From a virus (lineage: Duplodnaviria; Caudoviricetes), in IMG/VR virus record IMGVR_UViG_3300036814_000177, positions 1-59,332 of that record: DNA of 59,332 nucleotides. One strand, given 5' to 3'. Of this stretch, positions 10,499 to 59,332 are shown piece by piece. A program made the position numbers and the translations under genes. Each line of letters starts with the position of its first letter. Position 1 is the first letter of the stretch. A model generated the notes under the pieces. It did not search any database. It was given only the letters and a program-made list of their open reading frames with translations, and had not been told where the DNA came from.

Positions 10499-11173
10499 TC
10501 AGCTACCTCCCGTCAGCTTAGCCATAGTAGAGATCGCGGTCATATCGTCAAGGTTTACACCCTCAATCTCTGGCTTATCCCCTCTCTTCCTACGTTCCAC
10601 GATCTCCTTGTGCTTCTCCTGCTTATCGCTCGGCACTAAGTCCCACAGCGGAGGCCATGCCTTCAACGCTGGAGCCAGCGTACTGTAGGCGTTGATAACC
10701 TTATCCACACCGTCGATGAACACCGCTTGCTCCTGTTCCAGCTTGTGTACCTTCAAGCAGAACACCTTGTACTCAGCCTTGAGGGTATCCCACCGTGGAT
10801 CGTCGGCGTTGAGGGTGAAGCCGCCGTAGCTACCTGCACGGTGAACACCATGCGCTTCCTTATTCTCTGCCCAATCGTATGGAACCTTGCGCACCTCGTC
10901 ACCGGGGAAGGGCATATCCACACCCCCATTGATCGCGCTGTCCCAGTCCTTACCTTGGAACCCGCTAAGGTCCATATCATCCATGGTGTTGAAGTACCCA
11001 TCAGGGAGGGCATCCATCTGATCCTTGGTGTCCTTGAACATCAGGTCATAGATGTTACCAGCCCAGTTCTTAGGCGGGTTGTCCCTTTCCTTTTGGATGC
11101 GTTTGTCAAACACATCACTTGCCTTACGCCGGATGCGGGACCGAAGCTCGTCGCTAAATCTTACTGTCGCCAT
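10499..11173 (-). CDS. Nmad5-like (nucleotide modification associated domain 5) protein
   Basis: N-terminal VRFSDELRSRI and C-terminal STLAPALKAWPPLWDLVP, with a TAGGAG RBS. Confidence 0.65.
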   Translation of the reverse strand: MATVRFSDELRSRIRRKASDVFDKRIQKERDNPPKNWAGNIYDLMFKDTKDQMDALPDGYFNTMDDMDLSGFQGKDWDSAINGGVDMPFPGDEVRKVPYDWAENKEAHGVHRAGSYGGFTLNADDPRWDTLKAEYKVFCLKVHKLEQEQAVFIDGVDKVINAYSTLAPALKAWPPLWDLVPSDKQEKHKEIVERRKRGDKPEIEGVNLDDMTAISTMAKLTGGS

Positions 11174-11175
11174 GT

Positions 11176-11343
11176 CTATTCTCCTAGTTTTCTAACATGA
11201 ATGTCGTCACCGTCCACATGGACCTTAACTTTCCCTGTCGCAATATCTCCAACGGTCTGCTCCAACCGACGTATCCGAACATGTTGCCCTACGATGTACC
11301 CCGCCGCTACAGCAAGGGCCACCGCCGTTATCCAATCAATCAC
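11176..11343 (-). CDS. Small single-TM protein (55 aa, below the track cutoff)
   Basis: GTG overlaps the VWA stop. MIDWITAVALAVAAGYIVGQHVRIRRL... fills the gap exactly. Confidence 0.6.
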   Translation of the reverse strand: MIDWITAVALAVAAGYIVGQHVRIRRLEQTVGDIATGKVKVHVDGDDIHVRKLGE

Positions 11344-12521: not shown

Positions 12522-12711
12522 TATCGTTCTCCCTGCTTTCAATTATGTCGTCGTTGATACGAAGGATAAGGCCAGCGAAAAACTCTCTGTCCATGTGGAC
12601 AATGAGCGTCTCCAGTAGCTGGCCCTTGTCGAGGTCGTGCATCCGGTCAGTCCACACCTGTATAGCATCAGGGTTGGTCTTTTTAACGAAGTCAAATTCT
12701 TCTTGTGTCAT
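12508..12711 (-). CDS. Hypothetical protein
   Basis: GGGAGG RBS and overlap coupling. Confidence 0.6.
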   Translation of the reverse strand: MTQEEFDFVKKTNPDAIQVWTDRMHDLDKGQLLETLIVHMDREFFAGLILRINDDIIESRENDNDKS

Positions 12712-13571
12712 GTTAGTCCTCCCATAAATACAGCCATCTTATCCATGATGGCCTTGGCTTCATCAGCCGTGTCTTGCCTGAGAACAGGATCATTCCTTAA
12801 ACTCTCAGGGTGGTGGTTCACTAGCTTCTGTTGCATCTCACTACGCAACTGCTCAAGGTTGGGATCGTCGGTGAAGTTCAGCCTAGTCAGCAACTCACAA
12901 GTGTCTTGAGCATCCTTGTAAGTGCCATCGCGGAACTCGTTCTGAGGGTCGGCCAGTCTACCCTGCAACCAGCTAACCTTATCGTACAGCCGTTGCCAAA
13001 CATCTTGCACAGCGGCTTGGTTCGCCTCCTTGAGCCTGTCCTCCATGTCACTCTCAATGGAGGCCAACTCAGCATCGGCAAGCTCTACACGGAAGTCACC
13101 AGTGGTAGGCACAGGCAGTACCGCTATGTCCATCTTGAACAGCTTCCTAAGATGGGGTATGCCGGGGTATTCCTTGGGGTTGAACAGTTCATGCTCACCA
13201 CTGTTAAGGATACGCTCAGCATCCAGCTTGGCTTGTGGGTACACATCAATGAAGTTCTCAACCAGCCCCATCCATGTGTTCCGTCTGCTACGGAAGTCAT
13301 TCATGTACGTCAGGTAGTTGCTTGAGGGCAGGATAAACGTACCGTCAATACCCCACGGCAGGGTGTTCAGATAGAACCCCTTCCTCACGTCGGTGGTGTC
13401 CTTGTGGACGATCCCCAACTCGTTGCAGGTAGGCAACAGGGTCTTGTTGAAGTTCCCTTTGTTGCCTTCCCCGTTCTCAGACACGATGGCCGAAGCCCTC
13501 CTGTCCAGTTTCCTTGCTGTCCACTGGCTTACGCTAAAGTGGACAAGTAGTGCCTTGTCACTTAGGTGCAT
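12708..13571 (-). CDS. DUF3150-like protein associated with the AAA/VWA module
   Basis: VSQWTARKLD, TLPW and LNFTDDPNLE; helical; lies between the AAA and VWA genes; TAGGAG RBS. Confidence 0.6.
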   Translation of the reverse strand: MHLSDKALLVHFSVSQWTARKLDRRASAIVSENGEGNKGNFNKTLLPTCNELGIVHKDTTDVRKGFYLNTLPWGIDGTFILPSSNYLTYMNDFRSRRNTWMGLVENFIDVYPQAKLDAERILNSGEHELFNPKEYPGIPHLRKLFKMDIAVLPVPTTGDFRVELADAELASIESDMEDRLKEANQAAVQDVWQRLYDKVSWLQGRLADPQNEFRDGTYKDAQDTCELLTRLNFTDDPNLEQLRSEMQQKLVNHHPESLRNDPVLRQDTADEAKAIMDKMAVFMGGLT

Positions 13572-13834
13572 TACATTTCTCCTAGAATTTTACGCTTGGT
13601 TTTCTCCACCACATTGTTGTCGTGGAGAACGTCATAAAACAAACTCATCCTCAGCTTCACTCTACACACAGCAACAAGTTGTGGATCACGCTTCTCAACC
13701 TGTTCCACAAACTTCTTACCGCTGTATGCATCGAGGTATCTGTCCTCCCCGTACCCTGCGGCATCCTTAACCGCACAGTACAGGTCGAACTCATCACCCG
13801 AACACTTGGACCAGCCTCTTGATCGCCCTACCAC
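13571..13834 (-). CDS. Hypothetical protein
   Basis: Fills the gap between the AAA and DUF3150-like genes, with overlaps. Confidence 0.5.
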   Translation of the reverse strand: MVGRSRGWSKCSGDEFDLYCAVKDAAGYGEDRYLDAYSGKKFVEQVEKRDPQLVAVCRVKLRMSLFYDVLHDNNVVEKTKRKILGEM

Positions 13835-14811
13835 AGTACGTCTTGGTTGGCTAAGGCCCAGTCCTTGAACGCTTGTGTTGAGGCCAGTGACTCATCCCGG
13901 CGACAGGCATAGGACACCATCAATGCTCCAAACTCTTGAGGCATCCGGTTAGCAAACACGATGGCCTTGGCAAACGAGGCGTTCTTAACCCTGTGAGCAA
14001 TGGCTCCGGTGATGGCATACAGCGTGGCAGGGTCTTCCGGTACAGTCGCCTTCTCAGGGTTCATCAACAGGTTGTCAATATCCGGCAAGTTACGCTCAAT
14101 CTTGCGGAAGCCCACAAACTCAGCCGCCGCACCCTCACCAATGGCTCCCTTGAAGCACTCGTACTCAGCCTCAACGGACACAACGTCGATCAGGTCACTA
14201 ACACCCTCGACCCAGCTACGACAGGTCGGGTTAGCACTACGCTGAGGGTCGTAGTCCTGCATCAGACCGGGACGAAAGCGGCAAAAGGTTATCACACTGG
14301 GGTTAACATCAGTGTCCACCCAGTAGCGAGTGGTCACATCAAGGTTCACCTCATACTCAAGCTCGGTGTACCTGTTGCTGAGGTGTCCCAACATCCTGTT
14401 GACGCCAGCCCTGTCCTCCTGCCTGTTGCCAGTAGCTATGACTTGCACATTGGCAGGCAAGGCGTGTCCATGTAGCTCCCGCTGTTGGATGATGTTGGCA
14501 ATCACCTTCTGGATATCAGCAGGACACTGACCCAGATCATCGAAGCAGATGATGGCTCTGCTCTCAGGGTCGGTAGGCCACCAATGCGGCATCTTGTAGC
14601 CGAACTTGTCGTCGTCCACGGTAATCATCGGCATCCCGAAGTCCTCCGTCAGACAGGTTGCGGCATGGACATGGATGTACTCCCTGCCCTGCTGTTCTGC
14701 ACCCTGTTCCACAACGCTGGTCTTGCCGCAACCGGGCTGACCAGTGATGTACACGGCCCTGTTGATCGTACCAAGGTTGACGAGTTCTCTAAGTATCTGT
14801 TCACTATGCAT
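13828..14811 (-). CDS. MoxR/AAA_5-like AAA+ ATPase
   Basis: Walker A GQPGCGKT, Walker B ICFDD, sensor ATGN, LSNR and TCRSW, with a TAGGAG RBS. Confidence 0.9.
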   Translation of the reverse strand: MHSEQILRELVNLGTINRAVYITGQPGCGKTSVVEQGAEQQGREYIHVHAATCLTEDFGMPMITVDDDKFGYKMPHWWPTDPESRAIICFDDLGQCPADIQKVIANIIQQRELHGHALPANVQVIATGNRQEDRAGVNRMLGHLSNRYTELEYEVNLDVTTRYWVDTDVNPSVITFCRFRPGLMQDYDPQRSANPTCRSWVEGVSDLIDVVSVEAEYECFKGAIGEGAAAEFVGFRKIERNLPDIDNLLMNPEKATVPEDPATLYAITGAIAHRVKNASFAKAIVFANRMPQEFGALMVSYACRRDESLASTQAFKDWALANQDVLW

Positions 14812-14828
14812 CGCAATCTCCTAGTAAG

Positions 14829-14905
14829 CTATCTGGCTCATCAGTGCAGGGTGATAATGCCCCACAGACCGGACGGCTAATCCGGTTTCGCCTTTCTCCT
14901 AGCCG
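14829..14905 (-). ncRNA. Type II hammerhead ribozyme
   Basis: Minus-strand RNA reads GGC-GAAA-CCGGA-uuagccg-UCCGG-UC^UGUGGGG-cauuauca-CCCUGCA-CUGAUGA-GCC. It has the complete core (CUGAUGA, GAAA, GUC), three stems and two pseudoknots. Predicted cleavage is between 14867 and 14866. Confidence 0.92.
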
Positions 14906-14921
14906 CTTTAGGCTCTCTGCA

Positions 14922-15224
14922 TCACAGCGTCACCTTGCCGCTGACTAACAGCTTGTGTGCTTGGCTCCAGCCGTAGTCGGTGTCGGCTAACTGCTCAATC
15001 TCTTGGAACAGGCTCACTGTCTGGAACTTGACAGTGTATTTGCTGTCATGGTGTTCCTCTTGTGTGGCAATATCCATCTCAGTAACTCTCGAACCCTTAC
15101 GAAAGCAGGGTGCATCACTGGTAACAACCTTGAATGTGTATCCAAGGTCGTATTCACGTTTAGTGTCGTTCTCGACGGTGGCTCCGTCCTCTGGGATGAG
15201 TTTGATGTTATATCTATGGGTCAT
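14922..15224 (-). CDS. Hypothetical protein
   Basis: CTAGGAG RBS; first gene after the 15284-15312 promoter. Confidence 0.75.
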   Translation of the reverse strand: MTHRYNIKLIPEDGATVENDTKREYDLGYTFKVVTSDAPCFRKGSRVTEMDIATQEEHHDSKYTVKFQTVSLFQEIEQLADTDYGWSQAHKLLVSGKVTL

Positions 15225-15283
15225 TTGGTAGCTCCTAGTTAGTTGGTGAAAAGTTTTGGGATTTGGTCGCTGGTCGAGCCGGG

Positions 15284-15312
15284 ACTATGCAATTTCCGGC
15301 GAAAATTGTCAA
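15284..15312 (-). promoter_or_regulatory. Sigma70-type early promoter
   Basis: TTGACA-N17-CATAGT on the minus strand, upstream of 15224. Confidence 0.75.
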
Positions 15313-15339
15313 GTTTGCTGGGCTGGGTATGAGGGGTGT

Positions 15340-15850
15340 AAGTTTGAGGGTATTAATTATCTGTTCTTCTATCTGTACTATCTGTTGGGGTGCTTAACTT
15401 GACGCTTCAACAGCTAGTATACAATTGTTTAATACCAATGGGTTAGGGGGTGCAGTATATAGATTATATAGATTATCCGTGTTTTGAAACTAATCAGTGC
15501 CACAATTTCATACATGTTTGTTGATGCCAAATTCGTAAAGTTATGATTTGGTAAAATTTGTGTGTGACTTTATCTATTTGAACAGATAACTTAGATAATT
15601 GATATAAAAGATTACTACCTAAACCCAGTTAATCCATGGTCAGTACCAAACTTGACAGTTAAAGTGTTAAGTTAAAACACCCCCTCCCCAACAGATATTA
15701 CAGATAGTTGGCCGTAAAGTATCCTCCAACCTGTTGTAATATAACAAACTTATACATCTACTACTACCTACCGATTAATGGTTCAGGTCTATTACCAATG
15801 CCTTATCGACCCTCTTTAATGGCGCACTCTGACCTACCGATGAATGGTTC
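15340..15850. other. AT-rich non-coding region with iterated TATCTGT/ACAGATA; candidate replication origin
   Basis: TATCTGT at 15358, 15370 and 15379. Inverted ACAGATA at 15582, 15691 and 15700. A 19-bp repeat at 15766/15832. No credible ORF. Confidence 0.45.
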
Positions 15851-15856
15851 TATAAT

Positions 15857-15895
15857 AAAAAGAAAAGAAAGAAGAGGAGAGGCTTGCGCCCCTCC
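15857..15895 (-). terminator. Intrinsic terminator
   Basis: GGAGGGGC-GCAA-GCCTCTCC hairpin followed by a U-rich tract (TCTTCTTTCTTTTCTTTTT). Confidence 0.7.
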
Positions 15896-15901
15896 AATCC
15901 T

Positions 15902-15997
15902 TCAGATGCGGTGCCAGTAGAACACCCAGTCTCCGTCTTTCCGGCACTTCCACAAGGTGTGGCCGGTGGGCAGCCTGCACACGAGGAGCCTACTCAC
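15902..15997 (-). CDS. Small hypothetical protein (31 aa)
   Basis: GTGA overlap with the upstream stop and a GAGG RBS. Sequence MSRLLVCRLPTGHTLWKCRKDGDWVFYWHRI. Confidence 0.45.
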   Translation of the reverse strand: MSRLLVCRLPTGHTLWKCRKDGDWVFYWHRI

Positions 15998-16173
15998 TTG
16001 GCCACCTCGAGCTTGGTGCGGAGGGTGATGAGGGTGCTGATGTAAGCCTGCATCTCCCGTTTGAAGTCTTCGGAGCAATTCTCCTCAGCTTCGGTTTCTG
16101 CATCGGCGATCTCGCCGACAATGGTGTCGATGAGCAAGCAGCGCTCAATACTGTCTAGGTCTATGTGTGCCAT
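15994..16173 (-). CDS. Small acidic helical protein (59 aa)
   Basis: TAGGAGGT RBS. Sequence MAHIDLDSIERCLLIDTIVGEIADAETEAEENCSEDFKREMQAYISTLITLRTKLEVAK. Confidence 0.75.
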   Translation of the reverse strand: MAHIDLDSIERCLLIDTIVGEIADAETEAEENCSEDFKREMQAYISTLITLRTKLEVAK

Positions 16174-16233
16174 GACGGCGCACCTCCTATGTAGGGGGGA
16201 GCCGAAGCTCCCCCCAGTGTGATAGGTATGAAC

Positions 16234-16413
16234 CTACATCTGTTCGGGAGGCATTACACCATCGAACTGTAAGTCCATAATACGCTCGCCTGCACGGCGC
16301 AGGGACTCGAGCAGGTTGAAGCGTGTCCGTGCCTCAACCCAGTCGGGTCTATCGAACGTCTCAACGACGTCCTGTCGGGCGTCGAGGTCGTAGTATAAGA
16401 TACGAAATGCCAC
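16234..16413 (-). CDS. Small hypothetical protein (59 aa)
   Basis: AAAGGAG RBS and GTG start. Sequence MAFRILYYDLDARQDVVETFDRPDWVEARTRF... Confidence 0.7.
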   Translation of the reverse strand: MAFRILYYDLDARQDVVETFDRPDWVEARTRFNLLESLRRAGERIMDLQFDGVMPPEQM

Positions 16414-16428
16414 TGCATTTCTCCTTTG

Positions 16429-16465
16429 AAAAAGGTTCCCCGGAGCGTTCTAGCTCCGGGGTTCC
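16429..16465 (-). terminator. Intrinsic terminator after the first early gene
   Basis: CCCCGGAGC-tagaac-GCTCCGGGG stem followed by TTTTT. Confidence 0.7.
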
Positions 16466-16475
16466 AGTTTAGTCC

Positions 16476-16895
16476 CTAGCCGACTACCTTCATGAAGGCC
16501 GCGAGTGCCGCGTCTTCACCCTTGTTGACAGGCCTTGGAGCCGCCTTAGGCTTCGCGCCTTCAACCGGTCGAACACCGATTGAGACGTTGCCACGCTTCG
16601 ACAACCAGCACTCGAGGCCAGCCGCTTCCGCCGTGGTCACCATGGCCAAGACTTCAGCCGGTGTCCGAGACACGAACTCGTGTTCGTCACCAACGAAGCA
16701 AGGGCTTCCGGGGTAAACCGGCAGCTTCAATTTGGTGGCGTAGGCTACCAGCCCACGTACCGCTGCGAAGCCTTCCTCACTCGTCTCGATTGGGACGCCT
16801 TGCTTTGCGACAGTTAACCGGGCCGAGCTTGCTCCCATCAACGTACCAGTTTTTGAGGCCGGATTGTGGATGGTCGTGTGAGGTTTAATAAACAT
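16476..16895 (-). CDS. First early gene, hypothetical protein
   Basis: 139 aa with an AAAGGA RBS, followed by a terminator. Confidence 0.8.
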   Translation of the reverse strand: MFIKPHTTIHNPASKTGTLMGASSARLTVAKQGVPIETSEEGFAAVRGLVAYATKLKLPVYPGSPCFVGDEHEFVSRTPAEVLAMVTTAEAAGLECWLSKRGNVSIGVRPVEGAKPKAAPRPVNKGEDAALAAFMKVVG

Positions 16896-17120
16896 ATTGA
16901 AATGTCCTTTCAGGGACTAAGGCCGTACCGCCGCCGCAATCGGAGGCGGCTTAGGCCTAATCTTTTCTTTCGCGCCCTAAACCAGTGTCTTGCGGGGCAA
17001 GGAAGTCTGCCGTTAGGCCTAGATTACTTCCGACCGTAGTTTTCTAAGGGTCAGCGTCTACCGGGGAAGGCTCGCCTTCTTGAAGTTCCCGTCTCTCCGC
17101 GGTGTGTGGTCCGTTTCGAT
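16896..17120 (-). ncRNA. Structured 5' leader RNA (candidate)
   Basis: About 225 nt without an ORF between the promoter and the ATG. Several complementary stems are visible by eye. Confidence 0.5.
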
Positions 17121-17126
17121 GATTGA

Positions 17127-17155
17127 ATTAAAGCATTATCCGGCGAAAAACACAA
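17127..17155 (-). promoter_or_regulatory. Sigma70-type early promoter with extended -10
   Basis: TTGTGT-N17-TTTAAT with TGn before the -10. Shares CAAACTTG and spacer TTTTCGCCGGA with the 15284-15312 promoter. Confidence 0.65.
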
Positions 17156-17353
17156 GTTTGGCTGGTTTCCGTGCGCTTGCCAAGCCATTGAAAGCATTGA
17201 AACATTCGCGCTGGCGGGGCGCGTCGAGGCTCGACGGGGGGCACTTGGCCAGTCAAAAACTTTGTACCCCCCATAATACTAAACCTCTCTCAACAAACCC
17301 CAAAAAATAGTATATGTAAAGTTACACGTTTTGTTCTTATTCCACCCCAACCC

Positions 17354-17383
17354 TTGACTTTTCACTGCGCATCCGCCTATCCT
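17354..17383 (+). promoter_or_regulatory. Possible promoter of the late arm
   Basis: TTGACT-N18-TATCCT upstream of 17452. Confidence 0.4.
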
Positions 17384-17451
17384 TCGGTACTAAGATTTTG
17401 CAAAATCTTGTTTTGTCCGCGAGGACAATTCTTTAACTGGAGTATTTCACT

Positions 17452-17946
17452 ATGGGCGCTAATGCCACAAATGCAGAAATCGTTACCCTCGATGTAGTTG
17501 AGACCTTCAAGGTTGCTGGAACAGCCGTCAACGCCACTGCCGCTGAACTCAATATGGCGGCTGACAGCTCAGCCAATATGGAGGTTGTAACCACGACCAA
17601 TGTCATTACGGCGGCTGAGAGCGGTAAGACCTTTATCCTGACTAACACAAGTGCGTTCGTCTCGACTCTACCCGCTGCTGCCGCTGGTCTGCGCTATCGG
17701 TTCATTGCTGGTGTGGGCCAGGTCACAGGCGGTAACCATACCATCGTCTGCACAAACAATGACAACACCATGTTCGGCTCTGTTACTGTGGCTGGCGTTG
17801 TGGTTGCGGGAACTGTCGAGGGCAGCATAAACTTCGTTGCTGACACAATGCTCCCCGGTGATTGGTGTGAGGTGTTCAATGACGGAACTAATTGGTACAT
17901 CTCGGGGCAAGCCACCGCGAGTGGTGCGATTACGCTCACCACCTAA
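17452..17946 (+). CDS. Putative virion (head fiber/decoration-like) protein
   Basis: GGAG RBS. Beta-rich: ATAAELN...ITAAESGKTFIL...TLPAAAAGLRYRF...GTNWY. Confidence 0.6.
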   Translation: MGANATNAEIVTLDVVETFKVAGTAVNATAAELNMAADSSANMEVVTTTNVITAAESGKTFILTNTSAFVSTLPAAAAGLRYRFIAGVGQVTGGNHTIVCTNNDNTMFGSVTVAGVVVAGTVEGSINFVADTMLPGDWCEVFNDGTNWYISGQATASGAITLTT

Positions 17947-17949
17947 CAC

Positions 17950-17965
17950 TTGACATGAGTGTCAA
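17950..17965. promoter_or_regulatory. Palindromic operator-like site TTGACA-N4-TGTCAA
   Basis: Perfectly inverted 6-bp half-sites in the intergenic gap before the small terminase candidate. Confidence 0.55.
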
Positions 17966-17987
17966 CTAAGAGCTAGGCTCTCCGACC

Positions 17988-18449
17988 ATGGACAACTTGC
18001 CTCTCAAGTACCATCCATGGTCGGACCGTCTGGCGATGGATATTGCCCTCACCCTTGAGGGTTCGGGGGAGACACTGCCGGAAATTATGAAGCGTCACTC
18101 CATAACTATGGATGACGTGGGGCGCTTCAACGCAGACAGCGTGTTCCTCAAAAAAGTTCACCACCTCCGCGACGAGATCAGAGAGAAGGGGATGACGTTC
18201 CGCCTGAAAGCGAAAGCGCAGGCGGAGGAACTCCTCACAACAAGTTGGACGCTGATCCACAGTGCGGATGTAAGTGCCTCCGTAAAGGCGGACCTCATTA
18301 AGTCCACCGTCAAGTGGGGTGGGCTTGAGCCACAGAAAGACTCCGTCATAGAGGGTGGTGTCGTGGGTGGCGTAACCATACAGATAAATCTGCCAACGGC
18401 GGAGGCAAAGGTGCCGCAGGTCAAGACCATTGACCATGAGAGTGTTTAA
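17988..18449 (+). CDS. Putative terminase small subunit
   Basis: Helical 153-aa protein upstream of terL, with a C-terminal VTIQINL strand. Confidence 0.6.
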   Translation: MDNLPLKYHPWSDRLAMDIALTLEGSGETLPEIMKRHSITMDDVGRFNADSVFLKKVHHLRDEIREKGMTFRLKAKAQAEELLTTSWTLIHSADVSASVKADLIKSTVKWGGLEPQKDSVIEGGVVGGVTIQINLPTAEAKVPQVKTIDHESV

Positions 18450-18582
18450 GACATTCGCAGAGGCGCAGGTGTTCACTGCACAACTTGTTGAAGCGGGGGT
18501 TTCATTCACGACGAAGATTGTTACATTCCGCAAGCGGCTCAGAAAGCCGATGGAGATACAGGTGAAGATGTATGGCGTATGA
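18436..18582 (+). CDS. Small basic protein (48 aa)
   Basis: MRVFKTFAEAQVFTAQLVEAGVSFTTKIV... bridges terS and terL with overlaps. Confidence 0.5.
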   Translation: MRVFKTFAEAQVFTAQLVEAGVSFTTKIVTFRKRLRKPMEIQVKMYGV

Positions 18583-19957
18583 GATAGACTACACCCCCAC
18601 CAAGGTGTGCGGGCAGTTCATGGCAGACGACGCTAAGATGCGTGTGCTGATGGGGCCGGTCGGTAGCGGCAAGAGTGTGACTTCAACCTTTGAAGTCATA
18701 CGCAGAGCAGGGGAGCAAGAGCCAAATGAGCAAGGCATCCGCAAGTCAAGGGCGGCGGTTGTCCGCGAAACTGCCCGACAACTCATGGATACTACAATCA
18801 AAACGTTCCTCGATTGGTTCCCACCGGGGGTATGCGGGCGTTACATGCGAACCACAAAGACCTACTTTTTTGAGGTGGGCGACATTGAATGTGAAATTAT
18901 GTTCCGCGCTCTTGATGATGCGGACGATGTGGCCAACCTTAATTCACTTGAGCTAACATTCGCGTGGTTCAACGAGTGTCAGGATATTCACCCCGACATC
19001 ATAGACGCCATGTCCAAGCGCGTTGGGCGTTATCCATCCAAGAAGGACGGTGGCCCGACGTGGTGGGGGATGTGGGGGGACACCAACCCGCCGACGATGG
19101 ATACTTGGTGGTATTACCAGATGGAACACCTTGATCCGGATGACGGGGTCAGCGCCAACGACAACGGGTGGGGGGTGTACAAGCAGCCCAGCGGGCGCAG
19201 TCCCCAAGCGGAGAACATAGAGAACTTAGTGGAGGGATATTATGATACCCAAGGGCGCTCCGAGGAATACATACGAACGTTCATTGATGGGGAGTACGGG
19301 CTTAGCAGTCACGGTCAGCCTGTTTATAAGTATTTTCGCCCTGATTATCATATGGCTACCGAGCGTATGGAGCCTATTGTTAACGGCGTTCGCCCCCTTG
19401 TCATCGGCATGGACTTGGGCCTCACGCCCGCTGCGGTCATTGGCCAGAGCGACCCACGGGGGCGGGCGCTGATATATGACGAAGCTGTGTCGTTTGACAT
19501 GGGGGTGCAACGTTTCGCCCGGACGGTGCTGAAGCCGCTGCTGTTCGAGAGGTTCTCCGGAGCGAACTCCATTATCATCGTTGACCCTGCTGGCGTTCAG
19601 CGGGCACAGACAGACGAGCGCAGCGCCATAGATATCCTCAAGGCCGAGGGGTTCAAGGTCATGGCGGCTAAGACCAACAACGTGTCGGCCCGCCTCAACT
19701 CAGTGGACGAGTACCTCATGCGCCATGCGGATGGGGACTCAGCATTTTTAGTTAACCCTAACTGTACGGCGCTCAAAAGTGCGATGATGGGTGGGTATCG
19801 CTTCCATCCCAAGACCGGGAACATCGAGAAGAACAATCACAGTCACGTTGCCGAGGCGCTACAATATCTTATGCTACACATTGCGAGCATCAGTGACGGG
19901 TCGGTTGTCTCCCAGAGGCGGGAGATAAAGCCGATGTCCGCCATGGGGTGGACGTAA
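18572..19957 (+). CDS. terL: Terminase large subunit
   Basis: Walker A GPVGSGKS, Walker B AWFNE, DTNPP coupling motif, and nuclease motifs GMDLG, DPAG and SHVAEALQY. Confidence 0.95.
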   Translation: MAYEIDYTPTKVCGQFMADDAKMRVLMGPVGSGKSVTSTFEVIRRAGEQEPNEQGIRKSRAAVVRETARQLMDTTIKTFLDWFPPGVCGRYMRTTKTYFFEVGDIECEIMFRALDDADDVANLNSLELTFAWFNECQDIHPDIIDAMSKRVGRYPSKKDGGPTWWGMWGDTNPPTMDTWWYYQMEHLDPDDGVSANDNGWGVYKQPSGRSPQAENIENLVEGYYDTQGRSEEYIRTFIDGEYGLSSHGQPVYKYFRPDYHMATERMEPIVNGVRPLVIGMDLGLTPAAVIGQSDPRGRALIYDEAVSFDMGVQRFARTVLKPLLFERFSGANSIIIVDPAGVQRAQTDERSAIDILKAEGFKVMAAKTNNVSARLNSVDEYLMRHADGDSAFLVNPNCTALKSAMMGGYRFHPKTGNIEKNNHSHVAEALQYLMLHIASISDGSVVSQRREIKPMSAMGWT

Positions 19958-19965
19958 CTTTACTA

Positions 19966-19994
19966 TTGCGTTGTCTCACCGTGTCCCATATAGT
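19966..19994 (+). promoter_or_regulatory. Sigma70-type promoter of the sRNA
   Basis: TTGCGT-N17-TATAGT. Confidence 0.7.
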
Positions 19995-19999
19995 TCGCA

Positions 20000-20094
20000 T
20001 TGGTCGGACATGACCTCGGTTGAGTTTTCCTCCCTGTCAACTCGCCTCCTAGTAAACTTCCCCCAGCGGACTCCTAGCCGCTGGGGGGTTTTTT
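20000..20094 (+). ncRNA. Candidate ~95-nt sRNA with three anti-SD motifs
   Basis: Has its own promoter, two hairpins and an intrinsic terminator. CCUCCC, CCUCCUAG and ACUCCUAG lie in unpaired regions. Confidence 0.65.
20060..20094 (+). terminator. Intrinsic terminator
   Basis: CCCCCAGCGG-actcctag-CCGCTGGGGG followed by TTTTTT. Confidence 0.85.
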
Positions 20095-20097
20095 CTA

Positions 20098-20126
20098 TTG
20101 CTTCACATTCTCCAACAGGTTATAAG
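20098..20126 (+). promoter_or_regulatory. Possible promoter for the basic-protein/portal operon
   Basis: TTGCTT-N17-TATAAG directly after the terminator. Confidence 0.4.
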
Positions 20127-20158
20127 GAAGCTCCGATAATTTTTAGGGGGTTTTTGCT

Positions 20159-20377
20159 ATGGGTATTAAAGTCGTTAAGCGTAAGGTCAAGTTGACGCCG
20201 ACGCAGAGAGCTGTGATGCGTACGCCAGCAGAACGTGTTGCTGACGGCCTTGCCAAGTCAACGGCGAAGACGCAGCGTACTGGGGTTAGCTCCAGCGTTG
20301 GTAGCCGCGACGTTCTTTCCAAGCCCGGCTTCTTCAAAAAGAACTACCACCCCAATAGCAAAGGGAAGAACCAGTAA
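20159..20377 (+). CDS. Small Lys/Arg-rich protein
   Basis: AGGGGG RBS and TAATG coupling to the next gene. Confidence 0.65.
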   Translation: MGIKVVKRKVKLTPTQRAVMRTPAERVADGLAKSTAKTQRTGVSSSVGSRDVLSKPGFFKKNYHPNSKGKNQ

Positions 20378-20508
20378 TGCCAGTCGTTGGTGGTAAACAC
20401 TATCCGTACACTTCCAAAGGTCGCAAGGCGGCTAAGAGAGCCCAGCGTAGCAAGGCTACTGCTAAGCCGCGAAAGGCCAACAAGATTAAGCAGAGCAGGA
20501 AAAAATAA
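20377..20508 (+). CDS. Small Lys/Arg-rich protein (43 aa, below the track cutoff)
   Basis: MPVVGGKHYPYTSKGRKAAKRAQRSKATAKPRKANKIKQSRKK, TAATG-coupled at both ends. Confidence 0.7.
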   Translation: MPVVGGKHYPYTSKGRKAAKRAQRSKATAKPRKANKIKQSRKK

Positions 20509-20808
20509 TGGCTGGTCGTGAGTATTCCAACAAGGATAATAAGAAGGGCAACACACAGCGGTACTTACCGGTGAAGGTTGTCAGCCGCAAGACCGGCAAG
20601 AAGCAGGTGGGTAAGACTGCGGTTCTGGATATGAACAACAGAATATACGATGCGGCTATTAAGGATAGCACATTAGAAAAGCGTGGCCCCTACGGCAAAC
20701 ATTCAGACCGGATAATTAGGCAAACACGGAAGGCCAACAAGATTAAGCAGAGTAGGAAGAAATAATGCCTGGTCGTAAGTATTCCAACGCTGACAATAAG
20801 AAGGGCAA
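20473..20808 (+). repeat. 79-bp imperfect direct repeat spanning gene junctions (20473-20551, 20730-20808)
   Basis: aaggccaacaagattaagcagagYaggaaRaaataatgSctggtcgtRagtattccaac...aataagaagggcaa occurs twice, offset by 257 bp. Confidence 0.9.
20508..20765 (+). CDS. Small Lys/Arg-rich protein
   Basis: TAATG coupling; shares its termini with the neighbouring genes. Confidence 0.7.
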   Translation: MAGREYSNKDNKKGNTQRYLPVKVVSRKTGKKQVGKTAVLDMNNRIYDAAIKDSTLEKRGPYGKHSDRIIRQTRKANKIKQSRKK

Positions 20809-21010
20809 TATGAAACGCGCCCCTAAACCATTTGAGCGCGGCGGTAGTATGTACAATAGGTCTGCTCAGCGGGAGAGAGACCTTGAGTCAACGGATGGTG
20901 ACCGCTCTCGCGGCAGAGATGAGTATGGTCGGCTTAAGTATTACAAACCTAAGAAGGGTGCGAAGGCTTCCGAGGGTGATCTGGTCTTGAGGTTTAGGGG
21001 CGGAAAATAA
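20765..21010 (+). CDS. Small Lys/Arg-rich protein
   Basis: TAATG coupling to the portal gene. Confidence 0.7.
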   Translation: MPGRKYSNADNKKGNMKRAPKPFERGGSMYNRSAQRERDLESTDGDRSRGRDEYGRLKYYKPKKGAKASEGDLVLRFRGGK

Positions 21011-23079
21011 TGGCCGGACTTAGCTTCCTCAGAGTCGTGGACAACGAGACTCTTGTACAGCAAGAGTCTGAGGAGGAGACCCGACGCGCCATGCAGGAGC
21101 GACAGGCTGAGCCGTTGATGATCGGCCTAACGGGCTATCTCCGTACAGCGTTCGACGCAGCCAACCGAGCCAAAGACCCAATTGAGCGGGCGATGCTCAC
21201 AGCCCTTCGCCAGCGTAATGGCGAGTACGAGCCAAGTAAGCTGGTGCAAATCCAGAAGCAGGGTGGCTCAGAAATTTACATGATGCTTACCGAGGTGAAG
21301 TGCCGCGCAGCCGAGAGTTGGTTGCGCGATATCCTTATGGACACTGGCACACCCCCTTGGGATATTAAGCCAACCCCATTGCCCGACCTTCCCGAAGCGC
21401 GTGACGAGGTCATAGATCAAATACTTGGAGAGAAGGTCACTGGATTGATCGAGGAGATCGGGCAGGCTCCTAACCCCGCAGAGGTTTCCCAGCTTAAAGA
21501 GGTGATCGCACAGGAGCTACGGTTCTCTGTACTGCAAGACGCTCAGAACCGCGCAGAGGGTATGAAGCGTAAGATCGCTGACCAGTTTGCGGAAGGTGGG
21601 TTTGCGGAGGGCTTCAATGAGTTCCTCACTGACTTAGTAACTTTTCCCGCCGCCATTCTTAAAGGCCCATGTGTGCGCAGGCAGCGCAAGCTATCATGGG
21701 AGACCGACGAGGAAGGTAAGACTGTTGCGGTGGCTGACGAACAACTTGCTCCGGAGTTTGAGCGTGTTGACCCATTCCGGTTCTATCCGGAACCGGGCAT
21801 CGCTAAGGTTAGTGACGGCTACTGCTTCGAGCATCATCCCCTGACTCGAATGGCATTGTCTGAACTGCTTGGGGTGCCCGGTTATGATGACGACGCAATC
21901 CGTGAGCTACTTAAGATCGGTAACGGACAGAGTTGGATCAATAGTGACGTTGACCATGAGAAGGACGAGCTTGAGCGCAAGCACAGCACCGAGCAGCGCC
22001 CGACAGAAATTTACGATGCCCTTGAGTTCTGGGGCAAAGTCAGCGGAAAGATGCTGCTTGAATGGGGGCTTACAGAAGAGGAAGTCTCCGACTCTGCCAA
22101 AGAATATGACGCGAACGTGTGGATCGTGGGTAACTTCGTTATCAAGGCTATCCTCAACTACGATCCCCTTGGGGAGAAGCCATATGCTGTCACTTCATTT
22201 ATTAAAAGCCCCGGTGCGTTTTGGGGTAAAGGTATACCGGAGATTATCGAAGATGTGCAGAGCGTATGCAATGCGGCTGCGCGTTCGCTGGTTAATAACA
22301 TGGGCATCGCTTCTGGCCCTCAAGTTGAGGTTAACCTTGAGCGTATCCCCACTAATGAAGATATTACGCAGATGCACCCGTGGCGCATCTGGCAGGTACT
22401 CAATGACCCGCTCGGTGGTTCCGCCCCTGCTGTGCGTTTTAACCAGCCTAATGATAATTCTGCTGCGTTGATGGCGGTGTACAGCCAGTTCAGTCAACTG
22501 GCTGATGAACACTCCGGTGTACCCTCTTACTTGCACGGTGATCTCAATGTTTCCGGTGCGGGACGTACGGCCAGTGGCCTCTCCATGCTGATGGGTTCGG
22601 CGGGCAAGAGCATCCGCCAAGTCGTGATGCACATAGACGCAGACGTTATAAAACTTGTTGTGCATCGTATGTTTGTGTACAACATGCGGTACGATGAAGA
22701 CGAAGGCATTAAGGGTGACGCACAGATTATCCCCCGTGGCGCAATTAACTTGGCTGTTAAAGACACGGTTAACACACGCCGCGTTGAGTTCTTGCAAGCC
22801 ACCGCTAATGAGTTCGACATGGAGATCATCGGTACAGATGGTCGTGCAGCGATTCTTCGGGAAGTTGCTAAGGGGCTTCAGATGCCAGAAGACGAAGTCA
22901 TCCCATCCCGAGAGAAGGCTGCGTTCAATAAACGCGCCGCACAGAAGGAGTCACAAGCAGCCATTGCGCCGCCCGATGGAGGCCGCACTGGAGAACAGCC
23001 CAAGACACTTGACGTTGCTGGCAACCCTGCGGGTGGCATGAATGAAGTCGCAAACCAACAAACCGGGAGGGCAGTGTGA
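21010..23079 (+). CDS. Portal protein
   Basis: 689 aa after terL, with ERVDPFRFYP, FWGKGIPE..EDVQ...NAAAR and RTASGLSML. Confidence 0.88.
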   Translation: MAGLSFLRVVDNETLVQQESEEETRRAMQERQAEPLMIGLTGYLRTAFDAANRAKDPIERAMLTALRQRNGEYEPSKLVQIQKQGGSEIYMMLTEVKCRAAESWLRDILMDTGTPPWDIKPTPLPDLPEARDEVIDQILGEKVTGLIEEIGQAPNPAEVSQLKEVIAQELRFSVLQDAQNRAEGMKRKIADQFAEGGFAEGFNEFLTDLVTFPAAILKGPCVRRQRKLSWETDEEGKTVAVADEQLAPEFERVDPFRFYPEPGIAKVSDGYCFEHHPLTRMALSELLGVPGYDDDAIRELLKIGNGQSWINSDVDHEKDELERKHSTEQRPTEIYDALEFWGKVSGKMLLEWGLTEEEVSDSAKEYDANVWIVGNFVIKAILNYDPLGEKPYAVTSFIKSPGAFWGKGIPEIIEDVQSVCNAAARSLVNNMGIASGPQVEVNLERIPTNEDITQMHPWRIWQVLNDPLGGSAPAVRFNQPNDNSAALMAVYSQFSQLADEHSGVPSYLHGDLNVSGAGRTASGLSMLMGSAGKSIRQVVMHIDADVIKLVVHRMFVYNMRYDEDEGIKGDAQIIPRGAINLAVKDTVNTRRVEFLQATANEFDMEIIGTDGRAAILREVAKGLQMPEDEVIPSREKAAFNKRAAQKESQAAIAPPDGGRTGEQPKTLDVAGNPAGGMNEVANQQTGRAV

Positions 23080-23282
23080 TACAGCCTGACCCCGACACAG
23101 TTAAAGCGTTCGCCCATGTGGCGCTGAACGTACCGCGAGTGGCTAGGTTCCTTGAGGTTCAGTATCATGCTGAACTCGAGCGTCTACCGCAGACGGCATC
23201 AGACAAGCAGGGCATTGCCTCCGGGCGGTGTCAAGTTTTAGGTGAGTTGTGTAAACTTCTCACTGAAGCAACGGAGGCATAG
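23076..23282 (+). CDS. Small conserved head-region protein
   Basis: GTGA overlap; SGRCQVLGEL motif; lies between portal and scaffold. Confidence 0.65.
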   Translation: MIQPDPDTVKAFAHVALNVPRVARFLEVQYHAELERLPQTASDKQGIASGRCQVLGELCKLLTEATEA

Positions 23283-23332
23283 CCCAATGGGTAGCTTCTT
23301 TATTAACCAACGCATACCGATAGGAGCGTAAG

Positions 23333-24334
23333 ATGGCAGTACCAGAGCAAGTTCAAAAGCAGACTGAGGCCGTGAAAGCCTTGTATGACGATCTTAATGC
23401 AGAGAACGCGTCGTCTGAGACAGATGAAGCGCCTGTAGCTGAGCCGGTTCTACAAGAGGTTCCACCCGCCGACAGTGCTGAAGAGCTTGCACCGGAGTCC
23501 CCACCTGCTGAGCAGGGTGGTGACAACCGAGATGATGAAACGTGGCAACAGAAGTACCAGACCCTTCAGGGCATGTACAACGCCGAAGTCCCCCGTATGA
23601 ACGCACATATACAGGACTTGACGCAACGCGGCCAGCAGATGGAGCAGTTACTCGCTTCCATGCAGGCCGCACCAGCACCTGCCCCCGAGCCTGCCCCAGC
23701 GCCAGTCAGTGCTTTGACTAGCGACGAGGTGGAGGAGTATGGAGAGTCTATCGACATTATGCGCAAGGTTAGCCAAGAGATCGCTGGTCAGTACGAGCAG
23801 CGGCTTACAGCTATGCAGACTAAGCTCGATGAGTTACAGGGGACGGTTGTCCCCCGTGTTGAGCAGATTGCTAGTCAGCAAGCGCATAACGCTGAGCAGG
23901 GCTTCTGGGCCAGTCTACAGAGTACCGTTCCGAACTGGCGTGAGATCAACGACAATCAGGATTTCCAGTCTTGGCTGTTAGAGACCGATCCCCTTTCCGG
24001 ACTTACTCGGCAGACCTACCTTGACGATGCCCAGCGTAATCAGGACATCACACGGGTGGCGAGCTTCTTCGAGTCTTGGCAGTCGGCAACTGGTGCCGCA
24101 GTGGCTCAACCTAATCGGACCGCATCCGAACTAGAAAAACAAGTCGCACCGGGTAAAGGTCGCAGCAGCGGCGCTCCCCAAAGTGGTGAGACTAAAACCT
24201 ACGCTCCGGACGACATCACTAAATTCTTTGAGAAGGTCCGGACGGGTGGGTTTAAAGGTAAGGAGAAAGAGCGGGACGCCATTGAACGCGACATTTTCGC
24301 AGCGCAAAGCGAGGGTCGTATCACTTATGCGTAA
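23333..24334 (+). CDS. Putative scaffolding protein
   Basis: Acidic coiled-coil (WQQKYQTLQGMYNAEVPR) directly before the capsid gene, with a TAGGAG RBS. Confidence 0.75.
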   Translation: MAVPEQVQKQTEAVKALYDDLNAENASSETDEAPVAEPVLQEVPPADSAEELAPESPPAEQGGDNRDDETWQQKYQTLQGMYNAEVPRMNAHIQDLTQRGQQMEQLLASMQAAPAPAPEPAPAPVSALTSDEVEEYGESIDIMRKVSQEIAGQYEQRLTAMQTKLDELQGTVVPRVEQIASQQAHNAEQGFWASLQSTVPNWREINDNQDFQSWLLETDPLSGLTRQTYLDDAQRNQDITRVASFFESWQSATGAAVAQPNRTASELEKQVAPGKGRSSGAPQSGETKTYAPDDITKFFEKVRTGGFKGKEKERDAIERDIFAAQSEGRITYA

Positions 24335-25765: not shown

Positions 25766-25783
25766 GGGGGGCTTCGGCCCCCC
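25766..25783 (+). terminator. GC hairpin with UUCG loop after the capsid genes (weak terminator or mRNA-stabilising stem)
   Basis: GGGGGGC-TTCG-GCCCCCC; there is no proper U-tract. Confidence 0.4.
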
Positions 25784-25806
25784 TCCCTCCAACTTAGGAG
25801 GTCACC

Positions 25807-57592: not shown

Positions 57593-59332
57593 CTACTTCA
57601 CTACCCCCATCTGCCCCAGTGTAAGCTCATCTGACTGTTGCTGTGCCTCGTCAAGGTAGCCCAGCATTGCCATGTTGTTGAGGTTGACCCCGAACACGTA
57701 GTGCTGCCCTGCCTTGAGGCTGGTGTCTTTGCTGATCGTGAACTTCTTAGAGCGCGGGGTGGCATCAGCACCTACATCACCGACCTCCTTACGCAACTGA
57801 TTGAAGTCGTACCCACGGCTGGCGACATACTCTCTGAATGGTTTGACCACCAGCATCACCGTGCCCCTATCGAACTTATCCATGTTGCCCTTACGGTACA
57901 CATCGAACCGTGCTTTGATCTCGCCCTTCGGCTCACGCTTGATGTCATGGGTTGAGGGGAGGCTCCCATCAGTGGTGTGCATAATGGTCAGTGCTTTGTC
58001 TGCTTCCTCATTGAGGAAGTCTTTGATGATGTCGAACCCGTTGATACGGTTGTCCTCGACTGCACCACGCAGCGCATCAATCTGGTCGATGATGAAGCGG
58101 ATACCAATGGTGAAGTCGTAGCGGATGAGTCCCTCCTCCTTTGCAATGGTACATGCAACATGTTGTAGAATGAGTGCTGTCTCCCAGAAGCGCTCAACGC
58201 CAGCAAACTTAAACCCATACCAGTCAACGAACTTGAGTCGTGCCTCTGCGATACGCCGCTTGAGTTCTTTCTCCCCAAGCCGGAGGTACGCCTTCATCAG
58301 CTTATCACCAACCAAGCCGTGGTTCTCCATGAGGTGTTCCACGATCTTACGCCCTGCATCGCTGCTCTTTGCAAACAGTTTATGCCTTGGTATGTGAACC
58401 TCTAACAGCCGTGCCATCTGTGCATCAGTCTCTACCCCTGACGCTGCCATCTTGGAAGCGAAGGATATGTTGGTGGATACTGTGACACTCGTTGCCCACT
58501 CCTTGGCCTCGCGCTCTGAGGCTGAACGGTTGAGCCGCGCCTTGTCCCTACCCTGTGACACCCAGTAGCAGAAGTCGCCTACGTCCTCCATCAACGTAGC
58601 TTCGTCGATGGTCATGGGCAGGTGGCAGTACGTCCCCAACCTGTTGAACAGCGCGTTGTGTGTGAACTTGGCTGCGAAGTGCAGCTTGTCTGGCGCACCC
58701 CATACGCTCTGCATCCATAGCTGGATGATGGACTTGCCACCACCTGACTTGCCATGAAGGGAGATGGTCAGCCCTTTGAGTCCGGTCAGTGCCCACAGTG
58801 GGCCAGCGAAAGAATTGTTCAGCGCGAATATATGGTGGGGCATATCGGTTGTCTCAAGCACAGCCGTGGCACTAGCCCATTCCTCTATGGTGCCAGCCAT
58901 CCCGTACATCTTCTGACCTATGTTGGAGGCTGCCGAGGTGAGGGATATATCCTCTACAACAACTTCTCCAGCGTCTGATCTTTTGTAGAGGCGCTCGCCA
59001 ATGACAAATTGTTTGAAGCCGTTCTTCCACCCCATCGTCCCATGTATGTTAGACATGGACTGGGTCTCGCGTAGCTTGTTCATATATCCACGTAACATGT
59101 ACTGAAACCCTTTCGTCTGCTTCTCAGTCTGGAGGACGATACCTTGGTCTGCTATAGAGGTGGGGAACTCCCTGCTCTGGTCATTGAGGTACGCCTGACG
59201 GAACACTAGGTCTTGCCAGCCCTCATGCGGCCTGTTCCATTTGAACCGCACCGTCTCGTAGCCTAGGCTCTCATCAAGCCCATAACCTACAGGGTAGATG
59301 GCGAAGGGTGCAATCTCTACGTCCGTGCCGTC
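57593..59332 (-). CDS. C-terminal part of primase-helicase (DUF927 plus P-loop helicase domain)
   Basis: TMGWK, Walker A GKSGGGKS, Walker B TIDE, GRDKARL and ENHG. The frame is open to the window end and continues at the left end. Confidence 0.9.
   Translation of the reverse strand, partial: DGTDVEIAPFAIYPVGYGLDESLGYETVRFKWNRPHEGWQDLVFRQAYLNDQSREFPTSIADQGIVLQTEKQTKGFQYMLRGYMNKLRETQSMSNIHGTMGWKNGFKQFVIGERLYKRSDAGEVVVEDISLTSAASNIGQKMYGMAGTIEEWASATAVLETTDMPHHIFALNNSFAGPLWALTGLKGLTISLHGKSGGGKSIIQLWMQSVWGAPDKLHFAAKFTHNALFNRLGTYCHLPMTIDEATLMEDVGDFCYWVSQGRDKARLNRSASEREAKEWATSVTVSTNISFASKMAASGVETDAQMARLLEVHIPRHKLFAKSSDAGRKIVEHLMENHGLVGDKLMKAYLRLGEKELKRRIAEARLKFVDWYGFKFAGVERFWETALILQHVACTIAKEEGLIRYDFTIGIRFIIDQIDALRGAVEDNRINGFDIIKDFLNEEADKALTIMHTTDGSLPSTHDIKREPKGEIKARFDVYRKGNMDKFDRGTVMLVVKPFREYVASRGYDFNQLRKEVGDVGADATPRSKKFTISKDTSLKAGQHYVFGVNLNNMAMLGYLDEAQQQSDELTLGQMGVVK
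59183..59332. repeat. Terminal direct repeat copy 2
   Basis: Matches 1-150 at 149 of 150 positions. Confidence 0.97.

Follow-up and report, generated by a model that had tools for sequence, protein, structure and literature searches.

The 59,332-bp record IMGVR_UViG_3300036814_000177 of IMG/VR, referred to here as the window (the whole stretch of DNA that was analysed), comes from an uncultured marine phage and is rated 100 % complete by CheckV. Its plus-strand genes, which run from position 17452 on, include those for TerL (18572-19957) and an SU10-type portal protein (21010-23079), and the interval between these two contains, at 19966-20094, a putative small RNA unit displaying three CU-rich, anti-Shine-Dalgarno (anti-SD) motifs. 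This unit, and its possible pairing with ribosome-binding sites of the phage's own minus-strand genes, is the subject of this report. The minus-strand block encodes an AAA ATPase, a DUF2201 metallopeptidase/VWA-like protein, a weak Nmad5 match, an HslV-like peptidase, a family A DNA polymerase, a SNF2 helicase, a PD-(D/E)XK nuclease and a DUF927 protein. In what follows "early" denotes this minus-strand replication module and "late" the plus-strand structural genes, a label taken from strand and gene content.

The unit opens with a candidate promoter and closes on an intrinsic terminator scored at 11 pairs, 9 of them G-C (Table 1). Candidate promoter, predicted transcript of about 95 nucleotides (nt) and terminator all lie where an earlier reading of the letters of the window alone, referred to here as the original prediction, had placed them. 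The predicted fold of the 95-nt RNA has an energy of -36.5 kcal/mol (z = -2.98), a value equalled by 2 of 200 shuffles. The three CU-rich motifs, which had been proposed to stand in unpaired regions, are indeed mostly unpaired in the predicted fold, with mean unpaired probabilities of 0.74 to 0.80; they lie in the loop of hairpin 2 (20024-20036, GUUUUCCUCCCUG, including CCUCCCUG at 20029-20036; mean 0.80), in the linker that follows it, and in the terminator loop (20070-20077, ACUCCUAG; mean 0.75), which forms a second CUCCUAG seed. An overlapping open reading frame (ORF) of 74 amino acids (aa) with a TTG start (19971-20195) spans the terminator and the next promoter. This frame is not conserved, with long indels among relatives and ATA in place of its only internal ATG (20010), and on this comparison the interval is non-coding. 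The structural-operon promoter stands directly after the terminator and is followed by a 5' untranslated region (UTR) and the Shine-Dalgarno (SD) sequence UAGGGGG of a gene starting at 20159. The pattern TATTGC-N14-19-TANNNT was also tried as a genome-wide promoter word and was rejected (3 matches against 1.71 expected; 3 were reached in 20 of 100 shuffles).

Table 1 Predicted features of the small RNA unit, candidate target sites and the neighbouring ribozyme (positions in the window unless another sequence is named)
Feature	Position	Strand	Details
Candidate sigma-70-type promoter	19966-19994	+	-35 TTGCGT 19966-19971; 17-nt spacer; -10 TATAGT 19989-19994
Predicted non-coding RNA, ~95 nt	20000-20094	+	5' end inferred from the -10; 3' end is the U-tract
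5' hairpin 1	20002-20015	+	GGUCG/UGACC; loop GACA within invariant GACAU
Hairpin 2	20018-20046	+	GGUUGA 20018-20023 paired with UCAACU 20037-20042
Single-stranded linker seed CCUCCUAGUAA	20045-20055	+	Mean unpaired probability 0.74
Intrinsic terminator	20059-20094	+	Stem 20060-20069/20078-20087; U6 20089-20094
Structural-operon promoter	20098-20126	+	TTGCTT, 17 nt, TATAAG; directly after terminator
Candidate target, AAA ATPase gene (13828-14811)	14818-14827	-	SD region UUACUAGGAG; 10-nt complement of linker seed
Candidate target, 100-aa ORF (14922-15224)	15232-15239	-	SD region ACUAGGAG; 8-nt complement
Candidate target, 287-aa ORF (12708-13571)	13579-13585	-	SD CUAGGAG; 7-nt complement
Candidate target, 224-aa ORF (10499-11173; weak Nmad5 match)	11181-11188	-	SD region ACUAGGAG; 8-nt complement
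Candidate target, 59-aa ORF (15994-16173)	16183-16189	-	SD UAGGAGG; 7-nt complement of CCUCCUA
Weakest candidate target, DUF2201 metallopeptidase/VWA-like gene (ATG 12521)	12529-12535	-	SD CAGGGAG; 7-nt complement of hairpin-2 loop
Predicted type II hammerhead ribozyme	14827-14893; L083 2338-2404	-	Just upstream of AAA ATPase gene
AGCGGCUAGGAG, just 5' of hammerhead	14896-14907	-	12-nt complement of small RNA 20071-20082

Conservation of the unit among TerL relatives

At least 596 relatives by TerL were present in IMG/VR and 500 in metagenomes, and the best 80 of each collection were examined. A strong terminator lies 30 to 125 nt past the terL stop in almost all of them, preceded by a G-poor, CU-rich stretch. 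A first terminator finder missed T-poor tails; its relaxed successor called terminators at 147 loci, a number that includes a spurious one in L013, whose next gene directly follows terL. A promoter of the form TTGNNN-N16-18-TANNNT was found at 68 of 97 distinct terL-3' loci, followed by a non-coding stretch of 60 to 100 nt and the terminator. Of the 72 loci where terL ends in TGA, 59 have a -10 that begins immediately behind the stop codon, with a 17-nt spacing, and the -35 (TTGC..) lies within the last terL codons; the -10 interior varies freely, and the position of the -10 directly after TGA means that the stop codon would supply the TG of an extended -10. Loci with a TAA stop, the window included, have the pattern in 9 of 13 cases, the distance from the stop to the start of the -10 being 31 or 41 nt. 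In the subclade of the window (nine aligned sequences) the -35 is kept as TTGCGT or TTGCAT and the -10 as TATAGT or TACAGT, with variable spacers.

A single alignment of all clades (A1) had a mean column identity of 41 % and was unusable, so that per-subclade alignments (A2, A3) were used in its place; the clades are too divergent for a single covariance model. In the alignment of the window subclade (A2), 85.7 % of cells form pairs; of the 16 pairs, 7 show changes in both partners, three of these among the 6 pairs of hairpin 1 and four among the 10 of the terminator stem. The covariation score was 0.271, compared with 0.157 +/- 0.025 in shuffles (reached by 0 of 500) and at most 0.125 in slid controls, and the hairpin 1 loop GACAU is invariant in all nine sequences. 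Hairpin 2 is confined within the subclade to the window and L012 and is absent from L002, L004, L006, L007, L097, L099 and L101. A comparable hairpin, with UUUCCUCUC in its loop, is predicted for the AT-rich clade, where RNAalifold detected little covariation (both partners changed in 4 of 19 pairs; covariation term +0.19).

A promoter-like site was found within 45 nt after the terminator at 45 of 81 distinct loci, compared with 303 of 3200 random windows, by a strict pattern that visibly misses some real cases; a conserved 5'UTR follows. With a conserved promoter, a covarying 5' hairpin, a terminator and a separate structural-gene promoter behind it, the description of the unit as self-contained is supported. 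The same order of elements, promoter, about 60 to 100 nt, strong terminator and structural genes, resembles the lambda PR'-tR' unit, whose 6S RNA is a short terminated transcript just upstream of the late genes, and the promoter at the end of terL might accordingly be the true late promoter, with the RNA as a by-product and antiterminator read-through into the structural genes. We consider this improbable, since a second and better promoter, itself conserved, stands directly after the terminator, which makes read-through unnecessary, and since the co-variation of seeds and ribosome sites described below would be left unexplained. In lambda, to our knowledge, no second late promoter follows the terminator and no pairing role has been proposed for the 6S RNA.

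Genome-specific complementarity to early Shine-Dalgarno regions

The word CTCCTAG occurs seven times on the plus strand of the window and CTAGGAG not at all. Four of the copies lie 6 to 7 nt upstream of the minus-strand starts 15224, 14811, 13571 and 11173; a fifth, at 14896, stands next to a hammerhead ribozyme, and the remaining two are part of the RNA. The matches of 10, 8 and 7 nt that the original prediction had listed at minus-strand ribosome-binding sites (Table 1) were all correct, and the site of the gene assigned as an AAA_5 / phrog_1297 ATPase is the best candidate target. Counting the transcribed part only, perfect complements of at least 8 nt occur at 3 of 23 early and 0 of 33 late sites of the window. 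As DNA, such complementarity is a direct repeat, and with all seven copies in one orientation the words could be sites of a DNA-binding protein at early starts and after terL. This explanation appears highly improbable, because the early copies stand at a fixed SD distance before start codons, those behind terL are placed by the prediction in unpaired loops or linkers of a covarying fold, and the position of the seed shifts between linker and terminator loop within the subclade (L097 compared with L101, L002 and the window).

The window was also compared with five large relatives. In these six genomes the early sites carry clade-specific extended SD sequences, and the local RNA mirrors them. 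The window and G001 have (A)CUAGGAG at the sites and CUCCUAG in the RNA, G003 and G004 have GGAGUAAA at the sites and (A/C)UUUACUCC in the terminator loop, and G005 has GAGGUAAC at the sites and two GUUACCUUC repeats in the RNA, with the seed/site pair GUUACCU/AGGUAAC. Seeds and sites thus change together between clades, the co-variation in related phages for which the original prediction had called. The SD extension lies 5' of GGAG in the window and G001 and 3' of GGAG in G003, G004 and G005, and an extension on different sides of GGAG implies that the SD flanks do not follow the tail of the 16S ribosomal RNA. In the pooled six genomes, complements of at least 7 nt were found at 53 of 182 early and 24 of 226 late sites (Fisher p = 1.8e-6), a count in which the RNAs of the window and L004 included an untranscribed part of the promoter and one 10-nt "early" match, at a doubtful 49-aa ORF, is spurious.

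A swap test was applied in which the RNA of each cluster was scored against the ribosome sites of each cluster (longest perfect complement, mean of the top three sites), the matrix was double-centred, and the cognate diagonal was compared with permutations. With 29 clusters the cognate excess was 0.405 at early sites (p = 0.00045) and -0.136 at late sites (p = 0.89); dinucleotide-shuffled RNAs gave 0.055 +/- 0.110, and the observed value was reached by 0 of 200. With 34 clusters (82 usable loci, transcribed part only) the early excess was +0.504, a value reached by none of 20,000 permutations, and the controls were flat (late sites -0.067, p = 0.74; reverse complement of the RNA -0.048, p = 0.68). 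The centred value was positive in 25 of the 34 clusters (Wilcoxon p = 0.001), the cognate RNA ranked first in 7, and the excess persisted after removal of the best three or five clusters (p = 0.002 and 0.011); L013, which served in this test as an unintended negative, had a centred value of -0.38. Complements of at least 8 nt in this set were found at 37 of 392 early and 12 of 417 late sites.

Of the six seed classes tested, three had co-occurring targets. The complement of CUCCUAG was found at 10 of 78 early sites in seed-bearing and 11 of 314 in seed-lacking genomes, that of UUACUCC at 10 of 58 and 3 of 334, and that of GUUACCU at 8 of 63 and 0 of 329, respectively, while at the late sites of the same three groups of seed-bearing genomes the complement was absent (0/82, 0/67 and 0/64).

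Several results weigh against a role of the RNA at early genes. The promoter of the window matches 8 of 12 sigma-70 consensus positions and a consensus scan made no call there; the promoter pattern occurs at 0 of 12 loci with a TAG stop, where the element may be terL 3'UTR only; and the available metatranscriptome contigs, which are sparse, of low depth and unable to show small RNAs, include none over 19966-20094, which speaks neither for nor against a transcript. Taken by itself, the window shows marginal enrichment: three early complements of at least 8 nt are also reached by 118 of 2000 dinucleotide shuffles of the RNA, complements of at least 7 nt are found at 6 of 23 early and 6 of 33 late sites, and with crude gene calls the latter comparison becomes 7/29 and 7/41 (p = 0.33). 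Enrichment over shuffled RNAs holds in the cross-genome swap test with 29 clusters (0 of 200) and is marginal in the window. Duplex energies (duplexfold) fail to tell early sites of the window from late ones, and the swap test scored by duplex energy gave no cognate effect (p = 0.22). Without its best eight clusters the swap test falls to p = 0.13, and the CUCCUAG association at cluster level is not significant (3, 2, 11, 18; p = 0.33). No co-occurring early targets were found for CUCCCUG, UCACCUC and UUUCCUC (0/56, 0/46 and 1/90), the first of these figures being conservative because the crude caller missed the VWA start of the window itself. The proposed pairing of the hairpin 2 loop with the VWA site, the weakest of the candidate targets with its single 7-nt match, stands as a match and finds no comparative support (CAGGGAG at 0 of 56 early sites). 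Gene starts in the relatives came from our own crude caller, and the minus-strand genes are presumed to be early from their strand and content.

Much of this would fit an interval that is the 3'UTR of terL with a terminator and insulator before the structural promoter, its matches being the generic anti-SD/SD complementarity of a pyrimidine-rich RNA. A terminator after terL is near-universal in the relatives, the TAG-stop loci have no recognisable promoter, the enrichment in the window is marginal, duplex energies do not discriminate, and three CU-rich motifs have no specific targets. We nevertheless regard this explanation as unlikely, given that the promoter is held at exact 17-nt spacing in the 68 of 97 distinct loci while its -10 interior varies, that the 5' hairpin covaries around an invariant loop, and that the cognate-specific excess is absent from late sites, shuffled RNAs and the antisense control; generic complementarity cannot explain that excess. 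The reading that we prefer, with a probability of roughly 0.55, is that the unit encodes a conserved phage anti-SD small RNA, shared by a large uncultured marine phage clade, which pairs with the phage's own early ribosome-binding sites.

The hammerhead ribozyme and other features of the window

A type II hammerhead ribozyme is predicted just upstream of the AAA ATPase gene at 40.3 bits (Rfam gathering score 37) and, in the same place, at 40.2 bits in G001, the closest large relative; the stretches from four other relatives had no hammerhead at the gathering score. Both flanks of the ribozyme in the window read CUAGGAG and have complements, of 12 nt and 10 nt, in trans in the small RNA, and 5 of the 12 small RNA bases (CCGCU) fall within the 3' arm of the terminator, where the predicted unpaired probability is 0.00. 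In G001 the 5' flank of the ribozyme, UCUCCUAG, is able to pair in cis with the SD CUAGGAGA on its 3' flank.

Other ribosome-site words recur in the window. GGAGGUAGCUGA is found twice, at the minus-strand starts 1622 and 10497, and GGAGUAC(C) four times, at the minus-strand starts 2882, 4758, 8597 and 9031; neither word has a full complement in the small RNA. On the plus strand, 25774-25806 holds a G-C hairpin, GGGGGGCUUCGGCCCCCC, and then UCCCUCC, 6 nt ahead of the SD UUAGGAGG that belongs to the gene with start 25807; anti-SD and SD might form a hairpin in cis here, behind the preceding gene. At 20508 and 20765 (plus strand), two of the four small ORFs that separate the small RNA from the portal gene share a near-identical 30-nt upstream region that reads caacaagattaagcagag.agga....ata ATG and fits a local duplication.

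The record begins and ends within open minus-strand ORFs (1-1320 and 57593-59332), which would fuse into one gene of about 1019 aa, the C-terminal part of which matches DUF927; because these frames run off both ends, the record looks like a circularly permuted complete genome. No integrase was found among the window proteins scanned, a scan that took in part of the genes. The nearest cultured relative by TerL is Pseudomonas phage Rollin, at 43 %, and all 47 matching records are below 60 %; in Rollin the gap from terL to the next gene is 9 nt, so that no tractable model phage carries the element. A GenBank phage search with window positions 19800-20400 returned no match, and a host search of genome contigs returned eight contigs of metagenome-assembled genomes (MAGs) from scattered phyla, which were uninformative on the host. 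Three seawater metatranscriptome runs (three studies) each contain 7 to 12 % of the words from window positions 14001-24000, and contigs with 99 to 100 % identity cover 16636-17091, 17434-18464, 20156-20363, 21935-22085 and 23274-24000. Judging by these contigs, this phage or a near-identical one is present in seawater RNA libraries.

Proposed action and comparison with known systems

The following course of events is proposed. Host RNA polymerase would start at the weak sigma-70-type promoter just after terL, as the conservation of its motifs suggests, and transcription would stop about 95 nt further on at the predicted, covarying intrinsic terminator. The resulting RNA is predicted to present its CU-rich anti-SD seeds in the single-stranded linker and in hairpin loops, from where they may pair with the SD and genome-specific flanks of a subset of the phage's minus-strand genes, in the window at the (A)CUAGGAG sites of the promoter-proximal genes that start at 15224, 14811, 13571 and 11173. 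By analogy with anti-SD small RNAs and with c4 of phages P1 and P7, such pairing would cover the ribosome-binding site and reduce translation, and in this way the RNA probably damps the translation of early genes. The least certain step is the role itself, in which the early AAA/VWA module would be damped or shut off as infection proceeds. Repression, the early-to-late or lysis/carrier switch suggested by the original prediction, and an action on host targets are put forward by inference only.

A further-reaching reading, which we offer tentatively and hold to be less probable than the pairing itself, is that, throughout a clade of abundant marine phages, the clade-specific SD flanks form a private address code, read by one co-evolving RNA from the start of the late region that silences translation of the early class. 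The CUCCUAG/CUAGGAG pairing might then also be wired to the ribozyme flanks before the AAA ATPase gene, with the anti-SD partner of the closest relative lying in cis on the 5' flank of its ribozyme and not in trans. If either reading is true, an RNA layer would be added to phage gene timing, and the unusual extended SD flanks of the early genes would be explained; hundreds of contigs from uncultured marine phages keep the element.

The element fits none of the RNA families that could be tested. No Rfam family matched the window RNA at its gathering score, and the best matches, all far below threshold, were terminator-driven or to small RNA families of anti-SD type; they include ar14 (RF02344; 19.7 bits, E = 0.071, gathering 58.8), the Betaproteobacteria toxic small RNA RF02278 (13.6 bits, gathering 50) and anti-hemB (RF02837; 22.9 bits, gathering 49.5). 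The elements of seven relatives had no Rfam match at E <= 0.05. In PMC4615179 the cuckoo family of Alphaproteobacteria (ar14/CcsR-type) is described as two to four adjacent hairpins, each with CCUCCUCCC in its loop, in which stems vary and compensate while only the anti-SD-like CU-rich loop motif is kept, and which are proposed to occlude ribosome-binding sites. The likeness lies in the modular hairpins and the anti-SD-like CU-rich loop motif; the cuckoo RNAs differ in being bacterial and chromosomal, and in the phage the flanks of the seeds are genome-specific and match the phage's own genes. Where the cuckoo loops carry CCUCCUCCC, those of the window read UUUUCCUCCCUG and ACUCCUAG. The cuckoo motif is absent from the window RNA, and exact copies among the relatives are confined to the post-terL elements of L020 (about 2275-2300) and L117 (about 1605-1630).

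Such resemblances raise the alternative that the RNA is real and acts mainly on host mRNAs, or as a decoy or mimic of host CU-rich anti-SD small RNAs, with its complementarity to the phage being secondary. The motifs CUCCCUG, UCACCUC and UUUCCUC recur in many clades without phage targets, L020 and L117 bear the exact cuckoo motif, and the similarity to ar14, anti-hemB and RF02278, weak and below threshold as it is, points the same way. We give this alternative a small chance, as the MAG matches are taxonomically scattered and identify no host, no Rfam family reaches threshold, and the genome-specific match to early sites of the phage needs no host target.

The small RNA c4 of phages P1 and P7 is cut from the same transcript as its one target operon (icd-ant) and serves immunity in these temperate phages. 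In PMC12197685 c4 appears as a phage-encoded, structured antisense RNA whose short complements, presumably in loops, bind at and near the ribosome-binding site of a phage mRNA, which blocks translation. To that extent it resembles the RNA described here, a structured small RNA encoded by a phage and having short complements to phage ribosome-binding sites. It differs in that the present RNA has its own predicted promoter and several candidate targets, which lie about 5 kb away on the opposite strand, and the c4 model was not among the 14 Rfam matches at E <= 10. A full-text search of the literature (supplements excluded), together with the consulted portion of that 2025 review (PMC12197685), gave no trans-encoded RNA of a lytic phage aimed at its own early-gene class.

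Of the marks of Hfq-dependent small RNAs, which are binding to Hfq and a terminator hairpin with a run of at least six U behind it, the sequence shows the U6 tail. Staphylococcus has C-rich small RNAs of anti-SD type, RsaE among them. The UCCC loops of its RNAIII are mentioned in PMC4615179. The Staphylococcus RNAs are alike in having several C-rich hairpin loops that pair with the SD of multiple mRNAs; they differ in being host-encoded, in belonging to another organism group and in their sequences, a comparison made by Rfam scan alone.

What is known of the timing of phage gene expression concerns mainly transcription factors, modification of the polymerase and a few proteins acting on early mRNAs, and the phage RNAs known to us to occlude ribosome sites are encoded in cis and serve the immunity of temperate phages. 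In phage T4 the endoribonuclease RegB and the translational repressor RegA bring about a class-wide shut-off of early mRNAs through recognition of ribosome-binding sites. The analogy is one of function, with proteins in T4 and a base-pairing RNA with SD-flank specificity proposed here. In the present case a trans-encoded, multi-seed RNA seems to have evolved in step with an entire class of ribosome-binding sites in its own phage, and the address code, if true, would be an RNA-only counterpart of RegA and RegB.

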